Shown: positions 5,667 to 45,207 of the stretch, piece after piece | Layout of the letters: each line of letters begins with the position of its first letter | How positions within the stretch are numbered: position 1 is the stretch's first letter | From: Chiloscyllium plagiosum | Lineage: Eukaryota | Assembly (NCBI RefSeq): GCF_004010195.1 | Contig: NC_057757.1 | Coordinates: 5,465,093-5,510,502 of the forward strand | Reading direction: 5' to 3' | Length of the DNA stretch: 45,410 bases | Program-made: the position numbers and the translations under genes | The notes under the pieces: model-generated | The model's input: only the letters and a program-made list of their open reading frames with translations | The model's database searches: none | What the model was told of the DNA's origin: nothing

Positions 5667-6171
5667 CTGCAACAAAGCACAGGCCACTGAGTCACTCCCT
5701 CCAAGGCCGATCTAATCACCGCCCACACCTTCAGATCGGGAAGGCCAACAGCTCCAATGGGATCATGGCTATCCTCAACTTCCTATCTCCCCCATCCCTC
5801 GCAACCCTGGATTCCCTTCCCCATTAAAAACCTGCCTCAATCTTCAAGCATATTTACTAACTGAGCCTCTGTGGTAAGTAATTCCATAAATTCACTGTCA
5901 TTAGGAATAGGAGCAGGAGGAGGCTATCTGGCCCATCAAGCCTGCCCTCCATTCAGTAAGATCACGGCTGATCTTTTTTGTGGACTCAGCTCCACTCACC
6001 CTCACCCTTAGTTCCTTTGCTGTTCCAAAAGCTATTTATCAACATTCAACGAGGTAGCCACAACTGGGTAGGGAATTCCACAGATTCACAACCCTTTGGG
6101 TGAAGATGTTCCTCCTCAATTCAGTCCAAAATCTGCTCCCCCCCCTCCCCCCCTTATTTAGAGACTATGCC

Positions 6172-6332
6172 GAGCTGAAAATATGTTGCTGGAACAGCGC
6201 AGCAGGTCAGGCAGCATCCAGGGAACAGGAGAATCGACGTTTCGGGCATAAGCCCTTCTTCAGGGTTCCTGCGCTGTTCCAGCAACACATTTTCAGGTCT
6301 GATCTCCAGCATCTGCAGACCTCACTTTCTCC
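6172..6332 (-). mobile_element. Short Penelope-derived element with hammerhead motif, inserted in a CR1 fragment
   Basis: Exact 14-bp direct repeat ttagagactatgcc at 6158-6171 and 6333-6346; internal inverted repeat. Confidence 0.75.
6231..6268 (-). ncRNA. Minimal type-I hammerhead ribozyme motif (Penelope type)
   Basis: Minus strand reads GAACC-CUGAAGA-A-GGGC-UUAU-GCCC-GAAAC-GUC-GAUUC: intact core, helix II, palindromic ACGU in place of helix III, helix I 4/5 pairs. Confidence 0.7.
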
Positions 6333-6876
6333 TTAGAGACTATGCCCCCTAGTTCGAGTTTCAACCACCAGTGAAAACAGCCTCTCTACTTCCATCTTAT
6401 CTATTTCCCCTCATAACTTTATACGTTTCTATAAGATCGTCCCTCATTCTTTTAAATTCCAATGAATATAATCCCAGTCGACTCAATCTCTCCTCATAAA
6501 CCAACCGCCTTAACTGTGGAATAAACCCAGTGAATCACCTCCTCCAGTGCCAGTTTCTCAAGTAAGGAGACCAAAACTGTACGTAGTACTCCACTGCAGC
6601 ATGGCCTCCCTGCTTTTAAAATCCATCCCTTTAGCAACGAAGGCCCTCAAAATAAAATCCCCCTCATCTCGGTCTTAAAAGTTTGAATCAGAAGTCACCA
6701 GATAATAGTCCAACAGGTTTATACGAAATCACAAGCGCTGCTCCTGCGTTGCGATAACGTCTGGTCTGGCCAAGGGGAAAACAACCTTTCCAGAACAACT
6801 GTGTCAAGTCCTCTAGGAATCCAAATGTTCTTCTGAACCCCAATGAGTACAGTTTGAAAATAGTTGCCTCCATTAC

Positions 6877-9736: not shown

Positions 9737-10100
9737 CAGTCTGGCCTCCCGGCGACAGTAGGCCCGGAGTCTGGCCTCCCGGCGACAGTATGCCCACAGC
9801 CCGGACCCTTGGCGGCAGGAGACCTGGAGCCTGGCCTCTTGGCGACAGTAGGCCTGGAGCCCGGACCCTTGGCAGCAGGAGACCTGGAGCCTGGCCTCCC
9901 GGCGACAGTAGGCCTGGACCCCGGACCCTTGGCAGCAGGAGACCTGGAGCCTGGCCTCTTGGCGACAGTAGGCCTGGAGCCCGGACCCTTGGCAGCAGGA
10001 GACCTGGAGCCTGGCCTCTTGGCGACAGTAGGCCTGGAGCCCGCACCCTTGGCAGCAGGAGACCTGGAGCCTGGCCTCTTGGTGACAGTAGGCCCACAGC
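9737..10100. repeat. GC-rich minisatellite, 60-bp unit made of two related 30-mers, ~6 units
   Basis: ggcgacagtaggcctggagcccggaccctt + ggcagcaggagacctggagcctggcctctt repeated in register on consecutive lines. Confidence 0.95.
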
Positions 10101-13019: not shown

Positions 13020-14090
13020 CAGAGTCCTACAGCTCAGAAACAGACCCTTCGTACACGCTGACCAGATATCTTAAATTAATCTCGTTCCATTTGCCTGTGT
13101 CAGGCCCATTATCCCCCTAAACCCTTCCTATTCATCTACCCATCCACATGCCTTTTAAATGCTGTAATTGTACCAGCCTCCACCACTTCCTCTGGCAGCT
13201 CATTCCATACATGTACCACCCTCTGCATGAAAAAGTTGCTCGTTAGGTTCCTTTTAAACGTTTTCCCTCTCACTTTAAACCTATGCCCTCTAGATCTTGA
13301 CTCCCCTACTCTGGGGGGAAAAGACTTTGCCTATTTACACTATCCGTGCCCCTCATGATTTTGTAAACCTCTATAAGGTCACCCCTTAGTCTCCGACGCT
13401 CCAGGGAAAACAGCCCCAGCCTGTTCAGCTCTCCCTGTAGCTCAGATCCTCCAACCCTGGCAACATCCTTATAAATCTTTTCTGAACCCTCTCAAGTTTA
13501 ACAACATCCTTCCGATAGGAAGGAGACCAGAATTGCACGCAATATTCCAACAGTGGCCTAACCAATGTCCTGTACAGCCACAACATGACCTCCCAACTCC
13601 TGTATCCAATACTCTGACCAATAAAGGAAAGCATACCAAATGCCTTCTTCACTATCCTATCTACCTGCGAATCTACTTTCAAGGAGCTATGAACCTGGAC
13701 TCCAAGGTCTCTCTGTTCAACAACATTCCCCAGGACCTTATCATTAAGTGCATAATTCCTGCTCGGATTTGTCTTTCTAAAATGCAGCACCTCGCATTTA
13801 TTGGAATTAAACTCCATCTGCCACTCCTCAGCCCATTGACCCATCTGATCAAGACCCCATTGTAATCTGAGGTAACCCTCTTCGCTGTTCACTCCACCTC
13901 CAATTTTGGCGTCATCTGCAAACTTACTAACTGTACCTCTTATGCTGGCATCCAAATCATTTATGTAAATGACAAAGAGTAGTGGACCCAGCACCGATCC
14001 TTGGGGCACTCCACTGGTCACAGGCCTTCAGTCTGAAAAACAACCCTCCACCACCACCCTCTGTCTTCTACCTTCGAGCCAGTTCTGCAT
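13020..14090 (-). mobile_element. CR1/HER1-like LINE, RT domain to 3' end
   Basis: ORF 13425..14021: SGVPQGSVLGPLLF..YINDLD...KFADDAK...LEYCVQFWSP. Confidence 0.92.
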
Positions 14091-14094
14091 TGAA

Positions 14095-14470
14095 ATGGCT
14101 GGAAAAGCTCAGCGACCACTCTTGGAGAAAGAGCGGAGTTCATGTTTCAGGGTCCGGCGACCCTTCCTCAGACCTGATGCTAACTGCAAAACAGTTCAGT
14201 CTTATGCAGAAGGCCGGGGGCGGGCGGGGGGGAGTAAGGTGTAAACAATAAGTGGAGATAAAGCCCAAAGACTGAGAAAAGAACAGTTGGCCACACAAAG
14301 AAGTGGATAACACTCCTTGGAGAACAAATAGCTGCTGATGAGGACTATCAGGAGTTAACAATGGGCTGTGCGCAATAGCAGACTCTGTGATAACAAGGCC
14401 TGGCATGTGGGGGGTTGGGTAAGGAGGTGGGAGATAGTGCCTCACATTGCTGAACTCAATACTGAGTCTG
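14095..14470 (-). mobile_element. Penelope-like element 3' remnant with degenerate hammerhead (14137-14175)
   Basis: Minus strand: endonuclease-like terminus LSIEFSNVR, then GGU-CUGAGGA-AGGGUC-GCCG-GACCCU-GAAAC. Confidence 0.55.
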
Positions 14471-15871
14471 GAACCTTCCTGGAGTACTGCATACAGTTTT
14501 GGTCTCCCTGCCTGAGAAAGGATGTACATGGCGCTGGAGGGGGTGCACAGGAAGATCACTCGGAGTTGAGAGGGTTGGCTTATGAGGAGAGACTGGGACT
14601 ATATTCATTGAAATTTATTAGTCAGAGTATTGAGTACAGGAGTTGGGAGGTCATGCTGCGGCTGTACAGGACATTGGTTAGGCCACTGTTGGAATATTGT
14701 GTGCAATTCTGGTCTCCTTCCTATCGGAAAGATGTTGTGAAACTTGAAAGGGTTCAGAAAGGCTAGATGAACAAGGGGGTGGGGAATTCTCTGCCGTGGA
14801 AAGGCATTGATGCCCAACTACTGAATATTTCTAAAAGAGTTGTCTGTGGGGGGTGGAGGGGTTAAGGGATCAAAGGGTGTGGGGGCGGGGCAGAGGGAGA
14901 AAACAGAATGGGATGATCAGCCACGATCACACGGAACAGCAGCAGGCCTGGCGGGCCGAATGGCCCACTGCTGCTCCTGTTCCTTTCGCGTCAGCGTGAG
15001 GGGTGACGGAGACAGATTCAACAGGGAGGTTCAAAATGGGAGCAGTACTGGAACGCTGCAGAGGCCTAACAGCGAGTGAGCTAGTCCCAGCACGAGGGGC
15101 CAAATGGCCTGTCATTTCCAAATCCAGGAGCCGCCAGCAGTTAGGTAGATATTCAATAAAATAGGGAAAAGGACAAGATAGCGAGATGGGGAGTGGGGGG
15201 GTGGGGAGAGAGAGGGGGCTGACGCTGTACAAACAGGTTCAGAATGAACTCTGTGGCTGGCAGATAAATTCCAATCTTTATTAACAATTTAATAAAGATC
15301 TGTAAAATATTTTTAATCATGAAGCCATGGTCTGGTTGACACAGGCTGGAGAAACGAGCCTCCCCATGGTGAGAGACCGTGTTACTTGGGGGGTACAAAA
15401 GGAAAGCGTGGGCAGGGGACAATTAGAAGGGAGGTGCAGACAGACGCATGATCCGGAACCTTCCGTTAAAGTTCACCTTTGTTCTGTTTCTGTTTGCCGA
15501 GTCCCCTTTCAGCATCAGAGTTTCCAAAATGCGCTCGGGGTGTCTCCCCGTTAGCACAAAGTCCTCTCTCACATCCTTTCACTTTCTCAAACAAACAATC
15601 ATAGGATCCCGACAGTGTGGAAGCAGGCCATTCAGCCCGTTGAGTCCACACCGTCCCGCTGAAGACACGCCTTAAACGTTGCCAACGTACCTCTTTCCAC
15701 CACCTCCACTGGCAGTGTGTTCCAGGCACCCACCACCCTCCTTGTGAAAACTGTCCCCCTATTTCTCCCCTAAACTTTCCCCCTCTCACCTTGAACCAGT
15801 GTTCTCTTGTAGTTGAGCCCTCCACCCTGGGGTCAAAGCCTCTGACTATCCACCCTATCCATACCTCTGGT

Positions 15872-16063
15872 TAAAAATCACCCAACACCAGGTTCTAGTC
15901 CAACAGGTTGACTTGGAAGCACTAACTTTCAGAGCGCTGCTACAACCACCTGATGAAGGAGCGTCGCTCTGAAAGCTAGTGCTTCCAATTAAACCTGTTG
16001 GACTACAACCTGGTGTTGTGTGATTTTTAACTTTGTCTAACACCGGCATCTCCAAATCATGTC
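15872..16063 (+). mobile_element. Palindromic non-autonomous Penelope-derived element with central hammerhead motif
   Basis: ~65-bp inverted arms (15871-15936 / 15965-16030); tacctctggt duplicated at 15862-15871 and 16064-16073; inserted in a CR1 fragment. Confidence 0.75.
15947..15981 (+). ncRNA. Minimal hammerhead ribozyme motif
   Basis: CAC-CUGAUGA-A-GGAGC-GUC-GCUCU-GAAAG-CUA-GUG: core, helix II, palindromic AGCU, helix I CAC/GUG; predicted cut after A15978. Confidence 0.7.
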
Positions 16064-16206
16064 TACCTCTGGTAATTTTGTAGATCTCTATCAGATTGCC
16101 CCTCAACCTCTGCCTTTCCAGTGAAAATAATCTGAGTTTAGCCAACCTCTCCTCATAACTAAAGTCCTCCAATTCTGTAAAACCTTCTCTGTGACACAGA
16201 GTCTAG

Positions 16207-16690: not shown

Positions 16691-16993
16691 ACATCTCCAA
16701 AGCCTTCACCTCCTTCTGGTAGTGTGGCGACCAGAACTCCACGCGGTATCCCATATGCGGCCTAAAGTTTTATACACTGTAACACAACTTGCCACCTTTT
16801 ATATTCAATGCCCTGAAAGGCCTCATGCTTTCACGGCCACTTTACCCATCCGTCTTGTGGACCTGTACATCCAAATCCCTCTCTACGTCAATGAGCACCA
16901 ACGGCCCCCTGTCTCTCTGCCAACAGGTCTGTATTGCCTCTTCATTGAAACAGTCAATGTCGAAGCAGAGTAGGCCTATCGACCTCCCAAGGC

Positions 16994-17106
16994 GAAAGTG
17001 AGGACTGCGGACGCTAGAGATTAGAGTCGAGAGTGCGGTGTTGGAAAGGCACAGCAGGTCAGGCAGCAGGATGTTTCGGGCAAAAGCCCTTCAATCGGGA
17101 ATGATT
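16994..17106. mobile_element. Short Penelope-derived element, degenerate hammerhead on the minus strand
   Basis: Same family text (ggaaaggcacagcaggtcaggcagc, tttcgggcaaaagcccttc); 13-bp direct repeat gacctcccaaggc/gaccttccaaggc at 16981-16993 and 17107-17119. Confidence 0.65.
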
Positions 17107-17180
17107 GACCTTCCAAGGCTGCTTCACCGTTTAATAGGATCACATCCGAACATCCAGTACCCTGTTCCCACTCTCTCCCC

Positions 17181-17430: not shown

Positions 17431-17801
17431 AATAAAACTAAAACTAGGAAATCTGACACGTTCTCAAAACTCCACCACCCCCCATCTCAGATTCTTCAGT
17501 TAATTATCTTCCTACCGGACCCCCTTGATTACGAACTTCCCGCCAACAGAGGCGGTCTCTCCCTAACCACGCCTTGGGATTTAAAACACCCCGATTAAGT
17601 CAGTCAGGTACGTACCTCATAGGAAGTGGAGTCACAGGTAGACGGGGGAGGAGGGAGGGGGTTAAGGTGGCGTTTGAGATGTTCACCTCCATTTCTTGGC
17701 CCACTGGGTAGAGGGAGTTGGGATGTCATGTCACAGTGGTACGGGGCGTTGGTGAGTTTTGGAGGAATACACGCCAGGAGCAGGCAGCTGGGACTAGTTT
17801 A

Positions 17802-17980
17802 GGTAAAAACAATGACTGCAGATGCTGGAAACCAGATTCTGGATTAGAGTGGTGCTGGAAAAGCACAGCAGTTCAGGCAGCATCCAAGGAGTGTGAAGGG
17901 CTTTTGCCCGAAACACCGATTTTCCTGCTCCTCGGATGCTGCCTGAACTGCTGTGCTTTTCCAGCACCACTCTACTCCAG
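17802..17980. mobile_element. Palindromic Penelope-derived element with partial hammerhead
   Basis: Inverted arms agagtggtgctggaaaagcacagcagttcaggcagcatcc / its reverse complement; 16-bp direct repeat (15/16) at 17786-17801 and 17981-17996. Confidence 0.72.
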
Positions 17981-18314
17981 AGCTGGGACTAGGTTAGTTT
18001 GAGATTAGGGTTGGGATGGGCTAGTTGGGCCGAAGAGTCTGCTTCCATGCTGAATGGCTCTACAATTCTCCCTGTGGCTCTCTACGCTCCGCGGAGAGAT
18101 ATCCCAGCTTCCCCACGCTCTCTTCATGTCCCTGGTAACCCTTCGATGGACCAGATTTCACATCCTTTCTCAAGTAGAGGTGGTCGCAAGTCTCCAAGTA
18201 GGGCTTCCCACAATGAGGCCCGTCATTCCACAGCCACCCTGTACTGTACTGTCAGCATCTACCAATCCCCCGTTCCTCAGATATCCCACACCTCAATCGT
18301 TACTCAATATTTAC

Positions 18315-22152: not shown

Positions 22153-22558
22153 GATGTGCAGGTTAGGGTGACTTGGCCATGCTAAATTACCCATAGTGCA
22201 CAGGGATGTGCAGGTTAGGATGGATTGGCCATGCTAAATTACCCATAGTGCACAGGGATGTGCAGGTTAGGGTGAATTGGCCGTGCTAAATTACCCATAG
22301 TGCTCAGGGATGTGCAGGTCAGGGTGGATTAGCCATGCTAAATTACCCATAGTGCCCAGGGATGTGCAGGTTAGGGTGCCTTGGCCATGCTAAATTACCC
22401 ATAGTGCACAGGGATGTGCAGGTTAGGGTGGATTGGCCATGCTAAATTACCCATAGTGCCCAGGGATGTGCAGGTTAGGGTGCCTTGGCCATGCTAAATT
22501 ACCCATAGTGCACAGGGATAGCAGGTTAGGGTGGATTGGCCGTGCTAAATTACCCATG
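22153..22558 (+). repeat. 52-bp tandem repeat (~7.8 copies) inside an HE1-like SINE starting ~22097
   Basis: gatgtgcaggttagggtggattggccatgctaaattacccatagtgcacagg units start at 22153, 22205, 22257, 22309, 22361, 22413, 22465 and 22517. Confidence 0.93.
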
Positions 22559-27904: not shown

Positions 27905-28860
27905 GAGATCATAGAGCAGAACACGGAAACAGACCTTTCGGTCCACATCATCCAGGCCGACCAGGATAGATTAATAGTCCTACATGCTAGCATTTGGCTT
28001 AAAGCCCTCTAAACCCTTCCAATTCCTCCACCACTTCCTGTGGGAGCTCATTCCATACACTTACTACCCTCTACGTGAAAAAGTTGCCCCTTAAATCCCT
28101 TTTAAATCTTTCCCCTCTCTCACCCTAAACCTATGCCCTCTAGTTCTGGACTCCCCCACCCCAGGGAAAAGACCTTGTCTATTCACCCTATCCGTGCCCC
28201 TCATGATTTTATTATCCTCTATAAAGGTCACCCCTCAGCCTCCAACGCTTTAGGGAAAACAGCCCCAGCCTATTCAGCCTCTCCCTATAGCTCAAACCCT
28301 CCAACCTTGGCAATATCCTTATAAACCTTTTCTGAACCCTCTCAAGTTTAACAACATCCTTCCTATAGCAGGGTGACCAGAATTGCACACAATACTCCAA
28401 AAGTGGCCTAACCAATGTCCTGTACAGCCACAACATGACCTCCCAACTCCTGTACTCAATACTCTGACCAATAAAGGAAAGCATACCAAACGCCTTTTTC
28501 ACTAAGGTAAAAACAATGACTGCAGATGCTGGAAACCAGATTCTGGATCAGTGGTGCTGGAAGAGCACAGCAGTTCAGGCAGTAGAAAGTGCCTTCTTCA
28601 CTATCCTATCGACCTGCGACTCCACTTTCAAGGAGCTATGACTATACCTCCTATGTTCACATCCAAATCATTTACATAAATGACAAAAAGCAGTGGACCA
28701 GCACCAATCCTTGTGGCACTCCACTGGTCACAGGCCTCCAGTCTGAAAAGCATCCTTCCACCATCACCCTCTGTCTTCTACCTTTGAGCCAGTTCTGTAT
28801 CCAAATGGCTAGATCTCCCTGTATCCCATGAGATCTAACCTTGCTAACCAGTCTACCCTA
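27905..28860 (-). mobile_element. CR1/HER1-like LINE with a nested Penelope-derived fragment (28505-28590)
   Basis: ORF 28212..28502 is a CR1 RT C-terminus; the insert is flanked by gcctttttcacta / gccttcttcacta (28492-28504, 28591-28603). Confidence 0.85.
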
Positions 28861-29461
28861 AGGTAGATGGTGGGCGGACGTGACCTCTCATAGAGGAATC
28901 TAGAATCGTAGGTCACAGCTTAAAAACAGAGACGAGGAGGAATTGTTTTCCTCAGATTGTCAATGTTCGGAATTCTCTCTGCTCACCCCAGAGGGCCGTG
29001 GTGACTGGGTCACCGAGTACATCAATGGCCAACTTGGACAGAAATTCTTGATAGATGAGGGTGTCAAAAGATTAACTGAAGGAGGGTCATACTGAACTTG
29101 AAATATTAACTCTTGCTTCTCTCTCTCCCCCACAGATACTGCTGTGCTTCTCCAGCTGTTTCACAATATTTTGAGGGAGCTAAGGCTTTTCTCATCAGAG
29201 TGAAGAAGGCCGAGAGGTGACTGTTAGAGGTGTACAAGATGATGAGAGGCTGGACGGCCCAAAGACTTTTTCCCAGGGCGGAAATTGCTATCATGAGGGG
29301 ACATAATTATAAAGTGATCGGAGGAAGGTCTAGGGGAGATGTCAGAGGTAGGTTCTTTACACAGAGAGTGGGGGGTGTGTGGAATGCACTGCCAGCAGTG
29401 GTAGTAGAGTCAGAGACATTGGGGACATTTATGTGACTCTTGGATAGGCACATGGAAGATA

Positions 29462-32400
29462 AGGTTTTTTTGTGTCACTATAGTCTTACCAGAACATAGG
29501 GGCTGCTCTCGGGGAGAGGGAGGGGAGAGGGAGGGAGAAGGAGGTGAGAGAGCGTGAGAGAGCGTGAGAGAGCGTGAGAGAGCGTGAGAGAGCGTGAGAG
29601 AGCGTGAGAGAGCGTGAGAGAGCGTGAGAGAGCGTGAGAGAGCGTGAGAGAGCGTGAGAGAGCGTGAGAGAGCGTGAGAGAGCGTGAGAGAGCGTGAGAG
29701 AGCGTGAGAGAGCGTGAGAGAGCGTGAGAGAGCGTGAGAGAGCGTGAGAGAGCGTGAGAGAGCGTGAGAGAGCGTGAGAGAGCGTGAGAGAGCGTGAGAG
29801 AGCGTGAGAGAGCGTGAGAGAGCGTGAGAGAGCGTGAGAGAGCGTGAGAGAGCGTGAGAGAGCGTGAGAGAGCGTGAGAGAGCGTGAGAGAGCGTGAGAG
29901 AGCGTGAGAGAGCGTGAGAGAGCGTGAGAGAGCGTGAGAGAGCGTGAGAGAGCGTGAGAGAGCGTGAGAGAGCGTGAGAGAGCGTGAGAGAGCGTGAGAG
30001 AGCGTGAGAGAGCGTGAGAGAGCGTGAGAGAGCGTGAGAGAGCGTGAGAGAGCGTGAGAGAGCGTGAGAGAGCGTGAGAGAGCGTGAGAGAGCGTGAGAG
30101 AGCGTGAGAGAGCGTGAGAGAGCGTGAGAGAGCGTGAGAGAGCGTGAGAGAGCGTGAGAGAGCGTGAGAGAGCGTGAGAGAGCGTGAGAGAGCGTGAGAG
30201 AGCGTGAGAGAGCGTGAGAGAGCGTGAGAGAGCGTGAGAGAGCGTGAGAGAGCGTGAGAGAGCGTGAGAGAGCGTGAGAGAGCGTGAGAGAGCGTGAGAG
30301 AGCGTGAGAGAGCGTGAGAGAGCGTGAGAGAGCGTGAGAGAGCGTGAGAGAGCGTGAGAGAGCGTGAGAGAGCGTGAGAGAGCGTGAGAGAGCGTGAGAG
30401 AGCGTGAGAGAGCGTGAGAGAGCGTGAGAGAGCGTGAGAGAGCGTGAGAGAGCGTGAGAGAGCGTGAGAGAGCGTGAGAGAGCGTGAGAGAGCGTGAGAG
30501 AGCGTGAGAGAGCGTGAGAGAGCGTGAGAGAGCGTGAGAGAGCGTGAGAGAGCGTGAGAGAGCGTGAGAGAGCGTGAGAGAGCGTGAGAGAGCGTGAGAG
30601 AGCGTGAGAGAGCGTGAGAGAGCGTGAGAGAGCGTGAGAGAGCGTGAGAGAGCGTGAGAGAGCGTGAGAGAGCGTGAGAGAGCGTGAGAGAGCGTGAGAG
30701 AGCGTGAGAGAGCGTGAGAGAGCGTGAGAGAGCGTGAGAGAGCGTGAGAGAGCGTGAGAGAGCGTGAGAGAGCGTGAGAGAGCGTGAGAGAGCGTGAGAG
30801 AGCGTGAGAGAGCGTGAGAGAGCGTGAGAGAGCGTGAGAGAGCGTGAGAGAGCGTGAGAGAGCGTGAGAGAGCGTGAGAGAGCGTGAGAGAGCGTGAGAG
30901 AGCGTGAGAGAGCGTGAGAGAGCGTGAGAGAGCGTGAGAGAGCGTGAGAGAGCGTGAGAGAGCGTGAGAGAGCGTGAGAGAGCGTGAGAGAGCGTGAGAG
31001 AGCGTGAGAGAGCGTGAGAGAGCGTGAGAGAGCGTGAGAGAGCGTGAGAGAGCGTGAGAGAGCGTGAGAGAGCGTGAGAGAGCGTGAGAGAGCGTGAGAG
31101 AGCGTGAGAGAGCGTGAGAGAGCGTGAGAGAGCGTGAGAGAGCGTGAGAGAGCGTGAGAGAGCGTGAGAGAGCGTGAGAGAGCGTGAGAGAGCGTGAGAG
31201 AGCGTGAGAGAGCGTGAGAGAGCGTGAGAGAGCGTGAGAGAGCGTGAGAGAGCGTGAGAGAGCGTGAGAGAGCGTGAGAGAGCGTGAGAGAGCGTGAGAG
31301 AGCGTGAGAGAGCGTGAGAGAGCGTGAGAGAGCGTGAGAGAGCGTGAGAGAGCGTGAGAGAGCGTGAGAGAGCGTGAGAGAGCGTGAGAGAGCGTGAGAG
31401 AGCGTGAGAGAGCGTGAGAGAGCGTGAGAGAGCGTGAGAGAGCGTGAGAGAGCGTGAGAGAGCGTGAGAGAGCGTGAGAGAGCGTGAGAGAGCGTGAGAG
31501 AGCGTGAGAGAGCGTGAGAGAGCGTGAGAGAGCGTGAGAGAGCGTGAGAGAGCGTGAGAGAGCGTGAGAGAGCGTGAGAGAGCGTGAGAGAGCGTGAGAG
31601 AGCGTGAGAGAGCGTGAGAGAGCGTGAGAGAGCGTGAGAGAGCGTGAGAGAGCGTGAGAGAGCGTGAGAGAGCGTGAGAGAGCGTGAGAGAGCGTGAGAG
31701 AGCGTGAGAGAGCGTGAGAGAGCGTGAGAGAGCGTGAGAGAGCGTGAGAGAGCGTGAGAGAGCGTGAGAGAGCGTGAGAGAGCGTGAGAGAGCGTGAGAG
31801 AGCGTGAGAGAGCGTGAGAGAGCGTGAGAGAGCGTGAGAGAGCGTGAGAGAGCGTGAGAGAGCGTGAGAGAGCGTGAGAGAGCGTGAGAGAGCGTGAGAG
31901 AGCGTGAGAGAGCGTGAGAGAGCGTGAGAGAGCGTGAGAGAGCGTGAGAGAGCGTGAGAGAGCGTGAGAGAGCGTGAGAGAGCGTGAGAGAGCGTGAGAG
32001 AGCGTGAGAGAGCGTGAGAGAGCGTGAGAGAGCGTGAGAGAGCGTGAGAGAGCGTGAGAGAGCGTGAGAGAGCGTGAGAGAGCGTGAGAGAGCGTGAGAG
32101 AGCGTGAGAGAGCGTGAGAGAGCGTGAGAGAGCGTGAGAGAGCGTGAGAGAGCGTGAGAGAGCGTGAGAGAGCGTGAGAGAGCGTGAGAGAGCGTGAGAG
32201 AGCGTGAGAGAGCGTGAGAGAGCGTGAGAGAGCGTGAGAGAGCGTGAGAGAGCGTGAGAGAGCGTGAGAGAGCGTGAGAGAGCGTGAGAGAGCGTGAGAG
32301 AGCGTGAGAGAGCGTGAGAGAGCGTGAGAGAGCGTGAGAGAGCGTGAGAGAGCGTGAGAGAGCGTGAGAGAGCGTGAGAGAGCGTGAGAGAGCGTGAGAG

Positions 32401-34292
32401 AGCGTGAGAGAGCGTGAGAGAGCGTGAGAGAGCGTGAGAGAGCGTGAGAGAGCGTGAGAGAGCGTGAGAGAGCGTGAGAGAGCGTGAGAGAGCGTGAGAG
32501 AGCGTGAGAGAGCGTGAGAGAGCGTGAGAGAGCGTGAGAGAGCGTGAGAGAGCGTGAGAGAGCGTGAGAGAGCGTGAGAGAGCGTGAGAGAGCGTGAGAG
32601 AGCGTGAGAGAGCGTGAGAGAGCGTGAGAGAGCGTGAGAGAGCGTGAGAGAGCGTGAGAGAGCGTGAGAGAGCGTGAGAGAGCGTGAGAGAGCGTGAGAG
32701 AGCGTGAGAGAGCGTGAGAGAGCGTGAGAGAGCGTGAGAGAGCGTGAGAGAGCGTGAGAGAGCGTGAGAGAGCGTGAGAGAGCGTGAGAGAGCGTGAGAG
32801 AGCGTGAGAGAGCGTGAGAGAGCGTGAGAGAGCGTGAGAGAGCGTGAGAGAGCGTGAGAGAGCGTGAGAGAGCGTGAGAGAGCGTGAGAGAGCGTGAGAG
32901 AGCGTGAGAGAGCGTGAGAGAGCGTGAGAGAGCGTGAGAGAGCGTGAGAGAGCGTGAGAGAGCGTGAGAGAGCGTGAGAGAGCGTGAGAGAGCGTGAGAG
33001 AGCGTGAGAGAGCGTGAGAGAGCGTGAGAGAGCGTGAGAGAGCGTGAGAGAGCGTGAGAGAGCGTGAGAGAGCGTGAGAGAGCGTGAGAGAGCGTGAGAG
33101 AGCGTGAGAGAGCGTGAGAGAGCGTGAGAGAGCGTGAGAGAGCGTGAGAGAGCGTGAGAGAGCGTGAGAGAGCGTGAGAGAGCGTGAGAGAGCGTGAGAG
33201 AGCGTGAGAGAGCGTGAGAGAGCGTGAGAGAGCGTGAGAGAGCGTGAGAGAGCGTGAGAGAGCGTGAGAGAGCGTGAGAGAGCGTGAGAGAGCGTGAGAG
33301 AGCGTGAGAGAGCGTGAGAGAGCGTGAGAGAGCGTGAGAGAGCGTGAGAGAGCGTGAGAGAGCGTGAGAGAGCGTGAGAGAGCGTGAGAGAGCGTGAGAG
33401 AGCGTGAGAGAGCGTGAGAGAGCGTGAGAGAGCGTGAGAGAGCGTGAGAGAGCGTGAGAGAGCGTGAGAGAGCGTGAGAGAGCGTGAGAGAGCGTGAGAG
33501 AGCGTGAGAGAGCGTGAGAGAGCGTGAGAGAGCGTGAGAGAGCGTGAGAGAGCGTGAGAGAGCGTGAGAGAGCGTGAGAGAGCGTGAGAGAGCGTGAGAG
33601 AGCGTGAGAGAGCGTGAGAGAGCGTGAGAGAGCGTGAGAGAGCGTGAGAGAGCGTGAGAGAGCGTGAGAGAGCGTGAGAGAGCGTGAGAGAGCGTGAGAG
33701 AGCGTGAGAGAGCGTGAGAGAGCGTGAGAGAGCGTGAGAGAGCGTGAGAGAGCGTGAGAGAGCGTGAGAGAGCGTGAGAGAGCGTGAGAGAGCGTGAGAG
33801 AGCGTGAGAGAGCGTGAGAGAGCGTGAGAGAGCGTGAGAGAGCGTGAGAGAGCGTGAGAGAGCGTGAGAGAGCGTGAGAGAGCGTGAGAGAGCGTGAGAG
33901 AGCGTGAGAGAGCGTGAGAGAGCGTGAGAGAGCGTGAGAGAGCGTGAGAGAGCGTGAGAGAGCGTGAGAGAGCGTGAGAGAGCGTGAGAGAGCGTGAGAG
34001 AGCGTGAGAGAGCGTGAGAGAGCGTGAGAGAGCGTGAGAGAGCGTGAGAGAGCGTGAGAGAGCGTGAGAGAGCGTGAGAGAGCGTGAGAGAGCGTGAGAG
34101 AGAGGAGAGAGAGAGAAGAGGAGAGAGAGGAGAGAGAGAGAGGAGAGAGGCACAACTGGTGGTGCTTTAAACAGAGGGTCACCAGAGCGTGAGGGGGAGG
34201 GTCCTTCATGATAACCTCAAACCGGTGATGGGAATTGAACCCATACTGTTGGTATCACACTGCTCTAAACCGACTGAGCTAAACCGATTTCC
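29462..34292 (-). mobile_element. tRNA-derived SINE inflated by an internal satellite, inserted in a plus-strand CR1 tail (29175-29461 resuming 34293-34400)
   Basis: A-box TAGCTCAGTCGG (34270-34281) and B-box GGTTCAATTCC (34231-34241) on the minus strand; 13-bp direct repeat cacatggaagata / cacatgaaagtta at 29449-29461 and 34293-34305. Confidence 0.7.
29544..34102. repeat. Perfect decamer array (GTGAGAGAGC)n, ~456 copies
   Basis: Uninterrupted identical 10-mer over ~4.56 kb. Confidence 0.98.
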
Positions 34293-34758: not shown

Positions 34759-34888
34759 GGGAATCCCAATGAAGAGCTTATGCTCGAAACGTTGACTCTC
34801 CTGCTCCTCGGATGCTGCCTGACCGGCTGGACTTTTCCAGCACCACACATTTGACTTTGATCTCCAGCATCTGCAGTCCTCACTTTCT
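34759..34888 (+). mobile_element. Penelope-derived fragment with mutated hammerhead
   Basis: GAAUC-CCAAUGA-A-GAGC-UUAU-GCUC-GAAAC-GUU-GACUC followed by the family tail ctcctgctcctcggatgctgcctgacc. Confidence 0.65.
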
Positions 34889-35261
34889 CTCTCTACAATG
34901 TCCCCCATCAAACACTCCCAGGACAGAGACAGCACAGGGTTATTATTGAATAGAGCCAGGATACCTCAGTGAAATGGAGCGGGAGGTCAGGAATTCTCTA
35001 TTGTTTAACTCTATTGCTTCCTCTGTGTGTGCTTAAAAGAAAATTGAGGAATTGGTTTAAAAAAGCACATTTATAAAAGAGGAACAATGCTGGTGGTACA
35101 TTTGACAGGAAACCAATTTCCTCTCAAATTGGAAAGTGCCTCATCAGAGACACCAGGTCAACTGTGCTGATCTCCTGTGAAATAGCTCATAGGAACAGGC
35201 CATTCAACCCCTCAGCCTGACATTAGGTCGATTCATACCTTAACTCCATCAGTTTGCCCTT

Positions 35262-36494: not shown

Positions 36495-36730
36495 ATGTCC
36501 CTTTCAGAAAGGGTGTCTACCTCATCTTTATCGTGGACTGGTTTAAAAGCCAACTCCAGGAGGAAGGCGGCCTCATCTTCCGCCTTGGGACCCTCCAACC
36601 GCACGGGATCAACGTGGATTTCACCAGTTTCCNNNNNNTCCTGTCACACATTCCTGATGAAACGTCGACTCTCCTGCTCCTCGGATGCTGCCTGACCGGC
36701 TGTGCTTTTCCAGCACCACACTCTTCGAGT
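36495..36730 (+). mobile_element. Penelope-like element 3' end: endonuclease C-terminal remnant plus hammerhead lacking helix II
   Basis: LIFRLGTLQPHGINVDFTSF resembles a PLE GIY-YIG ORF terminus; followed by cctgatgaaacgtcgactctcctgctcctcggatgctgcc. Confidence 0.7.
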
Positions 36731-38789: not shown

Positions 38790-39365
38790 CGTGCACGTAC
38801 CTGACTGTGTTTGCCTGTGTACGTGCACGTATCTGACTGTGTTTGCCTGTTTGTGTGCACATGTCTGACTGTGTTTGCCTGTGTGCGCGCATGTATCTGA
38901 CTGTGTTTGCCTGTGTGCGCGCATGTATCTGACTGTGTTTGCCTGTGTGTGTGCACATGTGTCTGACTGTGTTTGCCTATGTGCGCACGTGTCTGACTGT
39001 GTTTGCCTATGTGTGCACGTGTCTGACTGTGTTTGCCTATGTGTGCACGAGTCTGACTGTGTTTGCCTATGTGTGCACGTGTCTGTCTGTGTTTGCCTAT
39101 GTGTGCACGTGTCTGTCTGTGTTTGCCTATGTGTGCACGAGTCTGACTGTGTTTGCCTATGTGTGCACGTGTCTGACTGTGTTTGCCTGTGTGCGCGCAT
39201 GTATCTGACTGTGTTTGCCTGTGTGTGTGCGCACGTGTCTGACTGTGTTTGCCTATGTGTGCACGTGTCTGACTGTGTTTGCCTATGTGTGCACGTGTCT
39301 GACTGTGTTTGCCTGTGTGTGCACGTGTCTGACTGTGTTTGCCTGTGTGTGTGCATGCCTCTGTC
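38790..39365. repeat. ~30-32 bp minisatellite (gtgtgcacgtgtctgactgtgtttgcctat), ~18 copies
   Basis: Direct tandem units are visible. Confidence 0.95.
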
Positions 39366-42150: not shown

Positions 42151-43595
42151 TTTAGTTCGGGTACGTGGTCAGCGTGGACTGGTTGGACTGAAAGATCTGT
42201 ATGACTCTACAGTGTCTATTTGTCTAGTTTTCAATGATAAAGTATCCACAACTCTCTAGGGTGTCGGGGGGGGTCTGGTTTAGTTTGTGATTATGGTCGG
42301 TATGGACTAGTTAAGCCGAAGGGTCTGTTTCCGTGCTGTATGACCATAACTTATACGATCTGTCAGGTTACTTAAGTCCCTCATCCCTAATGCCATTTTC
42401 CTGTATTCTCTCTGAAACCCTCTCACCCGAAGGACACAGGATTCTAGCGAAGGTAAACATTTATACGGAAGTTTAACAATCACCTCTTTGTTCTTATACT
42501 ACATGCCCCTATTAATGGAAGAGGAGCTTGTAGTCTTTTTAATAAAGTTATGATACCCACCTTGAACTGGGACCTTCAGACCCAAGGGTAGGGACACTAC
42601 CGGTGCAACACTGCTCTCTCAGATAGAAACGACAGACTTAACCAGGTTTAATCTGATTGAGAAGCAAGAGTCCTCATGGTAACCTCAGCCGATAACACCA
42701 TAAGACATCGGAGCAGAAATTAGGCCATTCAGCCCATAGAGTCTGCTCTGTTGTTCAATCATGGCTGATAGGTTTCTCGTCTCCATTCTCCCGATTTCTC
42801 CCAGTAACCCTTGATCCTCAAGAACCTATCTATCTCAGTCTTGAATATACTCAATGACCTGGCCTCCACATCCTCCTGTGGCAATGAATTCCATAGATTC
42901 ACCACTCTCTGGCTGAAGAAGTGTCTCCATATCTCTGTTCTAAAAAGCTCTTCCCTTTACACTAAGGCTGTGCCCTTGGGTCATAGTCTTTCCTGCCAAT
43001 GGAAACATCTTCCCAACATCCACTCTGACCAGGCCACTTGGTATTCTACCCGGGACACCTCTGGGGTCCCTCTGTGCCGCAAGCCAGCCCTCCAGCCAAC
43101 TGAGCTAATGGATTCCTCCCCCACCCCCCACCGTTGTGCCAAAAAAGCCCTTAGAGGGGTAGTGTATGTTCTGCACGCCGTCCTCTCTCAATCTGCCCTG
43201 CATCCACAACAATTAGTGTACGGACACCCACACAGCTCCCTCTGCAGAACCCACCAGCACCAATGCATTCCTCCGGTTTAATAAACTAGTCCTTAATTGA
43301 TTTTAAGAAAAAGATTTAACCTATTTTTATAACAGACCTTTGTAACAGCATTAAAAAGCAGAGCTTTCTCACTCTGAAACCCCATGAGCGGAGTCATGCA
43401 GCACAGAAACAAACCCTTCGGTCCAGCCAGTCCCCAAACTGAACTAGTCCCACCTGCACTTGGGCATATCCCTCCAAACCTTTCCTACACATGTACTTAA
43501 ACAAATGTCTTTTAAACCTTATATCTGTACCTGCATCCACCACTTCCTCTGGCAGTTCATTCCACACACGAACCACCCTCTGTATATATATAAAA

Positions 43596-43765
43596 AAAAA
43601 TCACACAACACCAGGTTATAGTCCAACAGGTTTATTTGGAAGCGCTAGCTTTCGGAGCACTGCTACAACCACCTGATGAAGGAGCGGTGCTTCGAAAGCT
43701 AGTGCTTCCAAGTTGGACTATAACCTGGCGTTGTGTGATTTTTAACTTTGTACACCCCAGTCCAT
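43596..43765 (+). mobile_element. Palindromic Penelope-derived element with hammerhead motif at 43670-43704 (same family as 15872-16063)
   Basis: Arms aaaaatcacacaacaccaggttatagtccaac / gttggactataacctggcgttgtgtgattttt; CAC-CUGAUGA-A-GGAGC-GGU-GCUUC-GAAAG-CUA-GUG. Confidence 0.75.
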
Positions 43766-44207
43766 ATCTAAATTCTAAAAAAAAAATTGACCCTCGCGTC
43801 CTTTTTAAATCTTTCCCCTCCCAGCTCAAAACTATGCCCCATGATTTTATAAACCTCTGTAAAGGTCATCCCTCAACCTCCAGTGAAAATGGTCGCAACC
43901 TATCCAGATTTTATATCTCAAACCCTTCCATACCCGGCAACATCCTGGTAAATCTATTCTGAGCCCTCTCCATCTTGATCATATCCTTCCTGTAACAGGG
44001 TGACCAGAACTGGACCCAGTGTTCCAGAACAGGCCTCACCATCACCCTGTACAAGGGCAACGTGACATCCCAACTCCTATACTGAAAAGGTCTGAGCAAG
44101 AAAGGCAGGCGTGCTGAATACCTTCTTAACCAGCCTGTGACGCAAATTTCAAAGAATTGTGTATACCCGAATCCCTAGGTCTCTCTGTTTTACAACACTA
44201 CCTGGGA

Positions 44208-44391
44208 GGAGGTGGGTACTGCAGATGCTGGAGATTAGAGTCAAGATTAGAGTGGTGCTGGAAAAGCACAGCAGGTCAGGCAGCATCCGAGGAGCAGGAG
44301 AATTGACGTTTCAGGCTAGATCCCTTCATCAGGAACCATCCATTCACCTGCTCCTCGGATGCTGTGCTTTTCCAGCACGACTCTAATCTTT
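44208..44391 (-). mobile_element. Palindromic Penelope-derived element, hammerhead core at 44300-44337 (weak helix II)
   Basis: 14-bp direct repeat aacactacc(t/c)ggga at 44194-44207 and 44392-44405; minus strand reads CUGAUGA...GAAACGUC. Confidence 0.7.
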
Positions 44392-45207
44392 AACACTACC
44401 CGGGACTCTTCCGTTAATTAAATCCTGCACTTGATTGTTTTACCAAAATGCAATACCTCACATTTATCCAAATCAAACTCAGTCTGCCTCAGCCCATTGA
44501 CCCAAGTGATCAAGATCTCTTTGTATAGGTCACTTGGCAATTAGAATAGTTTGGATTGTTCAGATCTTGACAGTATAAGGTTTCGAAGACTACAATACCA
44601 TGCCATAGACTGGACTCTCCTGATATACAAGCTTGACAGCATGATAGCTCATATTTCTAACGACAGCTTCAGTGTAACAAGGTGCCTCATGAAAGAACAA
44701 ACCAAATAAGATTAGACCTTTGAGAAAATATCAGGACAGCTGATCAAAACCGTAACCAAGGGGCTCCCCGTTTAAATTAGCCATCTAAAGGAAGAAGGAG
44801 AGGCAGGAAGATTTCGAGGGGACTTCATTCCACGCACTCAGGGTTCTGAGTGCATTTAAAAGGCATCTGGATGGGTATATGGATAGGAAGGGTTCAGAGG
44901 GATATGGGCCAAATGCTAGAAAATGGGATTTAATTAGGTTGGGACATATGGATATCTGGCATGGACGAATTGGGGCCGAAGGGTCTGTTTCCTTCCTGCA
45001 CATCATTTTCATGAACCTAACTTAGCTCCATAGTTCATCGCACACAGCAAAACTCTCCTCACAGCAGTCTGGAAGATGTCAGCCATTCTCCCTGAATCAG
45101 GTGAATCTTCCATAGGGAAAAAAAAAGATATTTCTTCCGAACCAAGAATGAAACCCCTGGTTACAGTACATGAGTGTGGTCGTCAGGGCCATTCCAGACC
45201 CAGCACC

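Follow-up and report, generated by a model that had tools for sequence, protein, structure and literature searches.

Insertions of Penelope-like elements (PLEs) have been described in which an inverted 5'-truncated copy lies beside the unit and one end carries an extension of 30 to 40 bp (Craig et al. 2021, PMC8557442). Inverted pLTRs, a 31-bp tail, and target duplications of 8 to 10 bp are reported by Arkhipova et al. (2013, PMC3846280), who propose self-priming for the inverted copies, and the same insertion pattern is given in a curation guide (PMC8969392). How PLEs build the inverted pLTRs and tails is described as unresolved (PMC8557442). A PLE protein of the anole (Poseidon PLE, PAc), for which a dimer is predicted, acts on both strands, cutting and extending each; it initiates at two adjacent sites that flank the tail, and most of the RNA that it inserts is uncleaved (Frangieh et al. 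2024, PMC11167929). The minimal hammerhead ribozymes (min-HHRs) of metazoan PLEs are mostly single motifs from truncated elements that cleave weakly even as dimers, and pairs on opposite strands have been noted (Cervera and de la Pena 2014, PMC4209133). Non-LTR retrozymes are built as tandem arrays of head-to-tail units, every one of which contains a ribozyme (Cervera and de la Pena 2020, PMC7229834; Li et al. bioRxiv 10.64898/2026.07.22.740005). Among the papers listed by literature searches, none was on a palindromic PLE mini-element; the supplements of the preprint may include the family for the one chondrichthyan treated there.

Here, we analyzed a stretch of 45,410 nucleotides from Chiloscyllium plagiosum (the window), in which a sequence-only reading had described two palindromic inserts with a caged hammerhead as members of a fixed, retrozyme-like or MITE-like family that moves as a unit. 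We find instead that both inserts are probably dead-on-arrival PLE end stubs of a high-copy family, built at insertion, a reading to which we give a probability of about 0.82.

Anatomy of the two inserts and their sites

Copy 1 consists of two inverted arms of 72 nt each, complementary at 90% of their positions and separated by an 18-nt spacer (Table 1), and its RNA folds at -110 kcal/mol (z = -17.3), a value that none of 200 shuffles equaled. An insert of about 190 bp with inverted arms had been claimed, and the arms are indeed there, but they measure 69 to 72 nt and not about 65, and the one-sided tail had gone unremarked. It is this tail that makes the insert asymmetric, the right arm running 32 nt beyond the point where the left arm begins. 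Both element 3' ends face outward inside the 10-bp duplication, one tailed and one untailed, and the outer end of the left arm coincides with the untailed 3'-end cluster of the family at 16031-16034.

The 10-bp target duplication claimed for copy 1, TACCTCTGGT, is exact on both sides. As a chance estimate, the 10-mer next to a randomly chosen position was found again within a similarly placed 80-nt window at 401 of 36,386 positions when a 4.6-kb tandem array is excluded; a looser 45x80 version of the test gave 173 of 5,000, mostly in tandem arrays, and keeping the 4.6-kb array gave 357 of 3,000, a figure inflated by that array. Both copies lie inside LINE 3' regions, at different points, and the site is uninterrupted in one paralogous LINE copy for copy 1 and in six for copy 2.

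Copy 2 is 86.6% identical to copy 1 over 164 columns, has the same center, and folds with z = -14.6. A second copy of the same architecture and center at 43596-43765 had been proposed, which is correct except for its end, probably near 43775. Its sole candidate duplication is a low-complexity A-run (43591-43600 and 43776-43785). The spurious frame that spans its junction, used as a protein query, gave no candidate.

Table 1. Features of the two inserts and of the second hammerhead family, in window coordinates
Feature	Position	Strand	Basis or remark
Copy 1, left target-site duplication	15862..15871	.	Exact 10-mer again at 16064-16073; final 2 nt compatible with the arm end as well
Copy 1, left arm (inverted, truncated element end without tail)	15870..15941	-	Stops inside helix II; no CUGAUGA
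Copy 1, unpaired center (5' part of the hammerhead)	15942..15959	+	Junction between 15941 and 15942
Copy 1, minimal type I hammerhead motif	15947..15981	+	Sequence, descriptor scan, family letters; predicted cut after A15978
Copy 1, right arm (sense copy, element end)	15960..16031	+	Inverted-repeat pairing
Copy 1, one-sided tail, 32 nt	16032..16063	+	Lacks a short internal stretch present in other family copies
Copy 1, right target-site duplication	16064..16073	.	Exact 10-mer match to 15862-15871
Copy 2, left arm (inverted, without tail)	43596..43664	-	Inverted-repeat pairing
Copy 2, minimal hammerhead motif	43670..43704	+	Core from 43673; predicted cut after 43701
Copy 2, right arm, 8-nt deletion	43683..43746	+	Inverted-repeat pairing
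Copy 2, tail	43747..43775	+	First ~18 nt clear, rest degenerate; then A-run, possible target duplication
Second-family hairpins, including flanks	6158-6346, 17786-17997, 44194-44405		Core then GAAACGTC or a decayed form; one-sided tails
Second-family single-arm copies	16981-17119, 28492-28603, 34770-34889, 36659-36722		

The junction at which the left arm meets the center is identical to the base in both copies, the only two hairpins of this family in the window, and is without the two C's found at the end of the most frequent upstream sequence among the family contigs, so that the obvious 4-nt microhomology is insufficient as an explanation as it stands. Between the two arms of one insert, there are differences at 7 of 72 positions in copy 1 and at 4 of 61 in copy 2. 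Comparing the arms of copy 1 with those of copy 2 gives 6 to 8 differences per 64 to 69 positions, which means that the two arms of copy 1 are no closer to each other than to those of copy 2. In loop II, the left and right arms disagree in the same direction in both copies, a pattern compatible with a shared hairpin master and equally with two templates. Relative to the majority letters of the family, we saw no derived change common to both copies outside the junction region, and each copy has one CpG-type change that is mirrored in both of its own arms. The junction, the loop II pattern, and the mirrored changes would all follow if a subfamily had slightly different upstream bases that gave rise to recurrent microhomology. 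The exact junction common to both copies is the part of the claimed fixed family that survives.

The hammerhead motif and its predicted occlusion

The complete minimal hammerhead that had been claimed near the center of copy 1 is laid out as described, with CAC at 15947-49, CUGAUGA at 15950-56, one unpaired A, helix II at 15958-62/15966-70, GAAA at 15971-74, the palindromic AGCU, and GUG at 15979-81, and we agree with the cut site predicted for it. The assignment to the PLE type also holds at the level of the motif, since the CUGANGA and GAAA core, helix I, helix II, and the palindromic remnant of helix III are all present. A strict descriptor, written after the motif had been seen, matches the window only at 15950 and 43673 and none of 100 shuffles, while the loose core alone has 8 matches against a mean of 4.6, which is barely above chance. 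An Rfam scan over the inserts gave no match to a hammerhead family and only sub-threshold matches to miRNA hairpins.

The copies show decay. Copy 1 has G-U in place of the G10.1-C11.1 pair, with T15970 where 65.6% of the family depth has C, whereas copy 2 keeps the pair, and the CpG sites of helix II have decayed in 7 to 34% of the family depth. Among the 40 variant positions listed of 47, none falls within 15947-15961 or 15972-15976 and loop II varies in 43 to 51%, with alignment-end effects uncontrolled in this comparison.

The left arm had been described as antisense to the 3' half of the ribozyme, and this is borne out. In a transcript of the whole element, the ribozyme helices have a predicted probability of pairing of 0.0000. 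The further proposal that the hairpin could switch ribozyme folding off is not supported. Forcing helices I and II would cost 28.7 kcal/mol in copy 1 and 35.3 kcal/mol in copy 2, and transcription of the ribozyme strand produces the blocking arm first. Removal of the left arm lowers the cost to 3.5 and 4.4 kcal/mol, and helix I is still predicted to pair at just 0.4% and 0.1%. In a transcript of the minus strand, the sense arm lacks CUGAUGA. Cofolding of two isolated motifs yields a predicted gain of 12.1 and 6.7 kcal/mol, mainly through the helix II sequences and not through an active dimer. The occlusion is thus predicted to be real but permanent, a lock and not a switch. Any inverted copy of the element 3' end is antisense to the 3' half of the ribozyme, and the caging is therefore a by-product of the insert geometry.

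Hairpins at 15901-16000, 17862-17959, 43634-43715, and 44279-44365 match Rfam miRNA precursors below threshold (best E value 7.7e-09, under the gathering score), and such matches are a likely source of false miRNA annotation.

The family in public contigs

Public contigs were aligned to 15912-16075 (junction, right arm, and tail) at 80% likeness, and matches were found in 48,725 contigs from organism A, 39,199 from organism B, and 8,971 from organism C. The family is therefore very large, although summed depth cannot be read as copy number, hairpins interrupt contigs, and the junction of the query itself cannot appear as a joint. A raw RNA run contributed no reads, a result that speaks neither for nor against expression or cleavage. 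Depth through 15942 away from contig ends was 2005, 740, and 82 in the three sets, compared to 336,048, 248,222, and 26,866 at 15946, or 0.60%, 0.30%, and 0.31%, and in the organism A set (X1) a different letter stands at 15942 in 1056 of the 2005. Among the matches listed, 462, 316, and 113 contigs have loose ends at 15942 where the 5' continuation has a different sequence. The consensus upstream of this position comprises 30 letters and ends alike in all three sets, with a low agreement of 0.39 to 0.43. Depth falls towards the 5' side, as it does in retro-truncation, and the greater part of it comes from copies that have one arm or are joined elsewhere.

Of 47 joints, 15 were listed, each resting on one to four contigs per set with sides of 21 to 48 letters, and 13 of these 15 are fold-backs, at 13 different position pairs. 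Five of the 13 also start at 15942, making this side a hotspot, in part because the aligned stretch stops matching there. In the 18 loose-end entries listed of 552, 3' ends gather at 16031 (478 contigs in X1) and 16034 (579 contigs in X1), while the tail continues at 16037 in 570 (X1) and 466 contigs, so that the family has two 3'-end classes, one ending at 16031/16034 and one tailed. One organism B contig crosses the junction, spanning 15913-16037 with 21 other letters and 2 gap letters, and a junction like that of both copies thus exists elsewhere.

These data do not support a fixed family that moves as a unit, as had been claimed, given a through-center depth of at most 0.3 to 0.6% and 13 distinct fold-back joints among the 15 of 47 listed. 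Arm boundaries that vary between copies, which the sequence-only reading itself had named as evidence against its proposal, are largely what the contigs contain, and three of three centers differ in a second family of the window. Pattern scans for further copies gave none in viral contigs and none in metagenome contigs. A single match in a prokaryote genome was set aside as a 21-nt chance match inside unrelated bacterial sequence.

Other hammerhead families and neighboring repeats

Six hammerhead motifs in the window align on the core. A second, unrelated hammerhead family forms three hairpins (about 6172-6332, 17803-17980, and 44208-44391), which have three different centers, duplications of 14 to 17 bp, and a tail on the left in two cases and on the right in one. 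The ribozyme lies in the loop in two of these, and the third has lost the 5' core. Arms within one hairpin differ at 1 or 2 per 31 to 33 positions, compared to 11 to 14 per 29 to 31 between the arms of the 6172 hairpin and those of the other two, which differ mutually at 2 to 4 of 31. Hairpin formation is thus a habit of more than one family, with the arms matched at each site. Two of the single-arm copies (16981-17119 and 28492-28603) have 13-bp duplications matching at 12 of 13 positions, and no duplication was found at the other two (34770-34889 and 36659-36722). Overall, duplications are present at 7 of 11 sites examined in the window.

A third hammerhead-like core on the minus strand (14130-14180, core at 14171) belongs to a different family with a 6-bp helix II, and no duplication was found there. 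The reverse transcriptase open reading frame beside it (13425-14027) was considered as a PLE partner and rejected on account of its motifs, which are LINE-type and which we take to be of the CR1 type. No PLE reverse transcriptase was found among the 34 open reading frames scanned of at least 70 in the window; the one reverse transcriptase match is LINE-type.

Several other repeats were seen. A 27-nt fragment of the copies' own family, followed by degenerate sequence, lies at 6696-6722, where no duplication was found. On the minus strand, 29138-29198 has a CTGATGA and GAAA core without a clear helix II, adjoining a 19-nt second-family match, and is possibly a further decayed stub. The 4.6-kb array at 29544-34138 has a 10-bp unit in about 460 copies at 99% identity, and the tRNA-like match adjoining it (34220-34288, minus strand; Rfam tRNA, 35 bits) is probably a SINE head. 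Minisatellites occupy 9741-10094, 22153-22557, and 38791-39351, with units of 30 to 60, 52, and 30 bp.

Discussion

The reading of both inserts as PLE end stubs draws on their anatomy, the two clusters of 3' ends, the many junctions, the huge copy number, and the decay of the copies. Membership of the family in the PLEs is suggested by the insert anatomy, and a one-sided tail together with an inverted truncated copy and a duplication of 8 to 10 bp is the published PLE pattern, which counts for this reading. We infer that PLE enzymes were the agent and that the steps followed in the order given here. An uncleaved transcript of the high-copy family would serve as the template, as indicated by the presence in the inserts of bases 5' of the ribozyme cut site. 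The PLE endonuclease would nick both target strands about 10 bp apart, and reverse transcription would begin at two neighboring start sites of the family, the tail end and a site about 30 nt inside. Both cDNA products would stop early, in or just beyond the hammerhead, and their head-to-head joining through a short stretch of matching bases would leave a one-tailed hairpin flanked by target duplications. For the origin of the two products, we favor two primings, one per nicked strand, at about even odds, over a single cDNA snapping back on itself, which is a possible but less probable route; the cutting and extension of both strands, the two start sites, and the uncleaved RNA reported for the anole PLE argue for priming from both nicks.

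The shared junction could also mark a minority lineage beside the ordinary stubs, a palindromic non-coding PLE parasite of about 190 bp in which a fold-back stub, its hammerhead silenced by the antisense arm, acted as master, was transcribed whole, and was re-inserted as a unit by PLE enzymes. We regard this as unlikely. The identical junction in two of two window hairpins without the two expected C's, the same loop II asymmetry in both, the 10-bp candidate duplications at both copies, the organism B contig that crosses the junction, and the non-zero depth through the center are in its favor, as is the finding that pLTR ends suffice for mobilization in trans (PMC3846280). However, that depth is at most 0.6% of the neighboring depth, the copies share no other derived change that we could see, and each has its private CpG-type change mirrored within itself, for which the chance is about 0.34 x 0.145, a rough figure from depth-weighted letters. 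In addition, the 15942 side is a hotspot, with five of the 13 listed fold-back joints (partly for the alignment reason given above), and a hairpin of -104 kcal/mol would be a poor template.

Much less probable still is a selected regulatory device, either a switch gating self-cleavage or a locus that yields small RNAs directed at the family. It would account for the full occlusion of the ribozyme helices in the predicted fold and for the sub-threshold miRNA-precursor matches over both centers, but it is difficult to reconcile with the predicted cost of opening the hairpin, the near absence of helix I pairing even without the left arm, the loss of G10.1-C11.1 in copy 1, the 8-nt deletion in copy 2, the CpG decay in helix II, and second-family hairpins that leave the ribozyme in the loop or lack its 5' core. 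A MITE-like DNA transposon with terminal inverted repeats, in which the hammerhead would be incidental, matches the inverted arms, the small size, the target duplication, and the high copy number; this part of the sequence-only reading is largely refuted, as the repeat is non-terminal on the right, where the 32-nt tail follows, the copies are heterogeneous with most of the depth one-armed or joined elsewhere, and the fall-off on the 5' side is of the retro type. Its retrozyme-like alternative fails as well, with no tandem array over either copy and one complete motif per insert. Palindromes can arise as assembly or library fold-back artifacts, and among the contigs listed none spans all of 15912-16075, but we give this explanation almost no credence in view of the differences between the arms in both copies, the clean duplication at copy 1, and the sites of both copies that are uninterrupted in paralogous LINEs.

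The inserts are thus real but ordinary, following the known PLE insertion pattern, and as they stand they matter little other than as material for the question of how PLEs insert. A genome with very many minimal two-armed inserts offers material for distinguishing one template molecule (snap-back) from two (both nicks). There is also a risk that such hairpins are annotated wrongly as miRNA precursors or MITEs. If the lineage with the same junction were true, it would correspond, in head-to-head form, to the tandem retrozymes and would be a new kind of non-autonomous PLE derivative.

Compared to known systems, the inserts are most like the complex insertions of endonuclease-positive PLEs, with which they share a head-to-head inverted truncated copy, a tail on one arm, a duplication of 8 to 10 bp, and a short junction overlap (PMC3846280, PMC8557442), but they have no open reading frame or direct pLTR and consist of just two end stubs of about 70 and 120 nt. 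By this analogy, they resemble the inverted-pLTR-plus-tail end of a canonical PLE insertion reduced to a minimum. The motif agrees with the metazoan min-HHRs in its CUGANGA and GAAA cores, the unpaired base between 9 and 10.1, the palindromic 15.2-16.2, and the absence of loop 3 (PMC4209133); it differs in the G-U at 10.1-11.1 of copy 1 and in having a helix I of 3 bp and a helix II of 5 bp, compared to 4 to 5 and 7 to 8 in the Schistosoma families, and the family has no mention among the min-HHR families in the consulted part of that description (PMC4209133). Like non-LTR retrozymes, which are known from a chondrichthyan genome, the inserts are short, non-coding, and PLE-related with a type I hammerhead (bioRxiv 10.64898/2026.07.22.740005), but they are single head-to-head inserts with one complete motif each. 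No open reading frame start was identified at the hammerhead of this family, which sets it apart from PAc, and the PAc work did not reconstitute inverted inserts in what is described there (PMC11167929). PAc prefers AT-rich sites (PMC11167929), and copy 2 likewise lies in an AT-rich run, which is not obviously the case for copy 1. On the reading favored here, the inserts share with PAc the two adjacent start sites of reverse transcription that bracket the tail, the cutting and extension of both target strands, and the inclusion of sequence 5' of the ribozyme cut site (PMC11167929).
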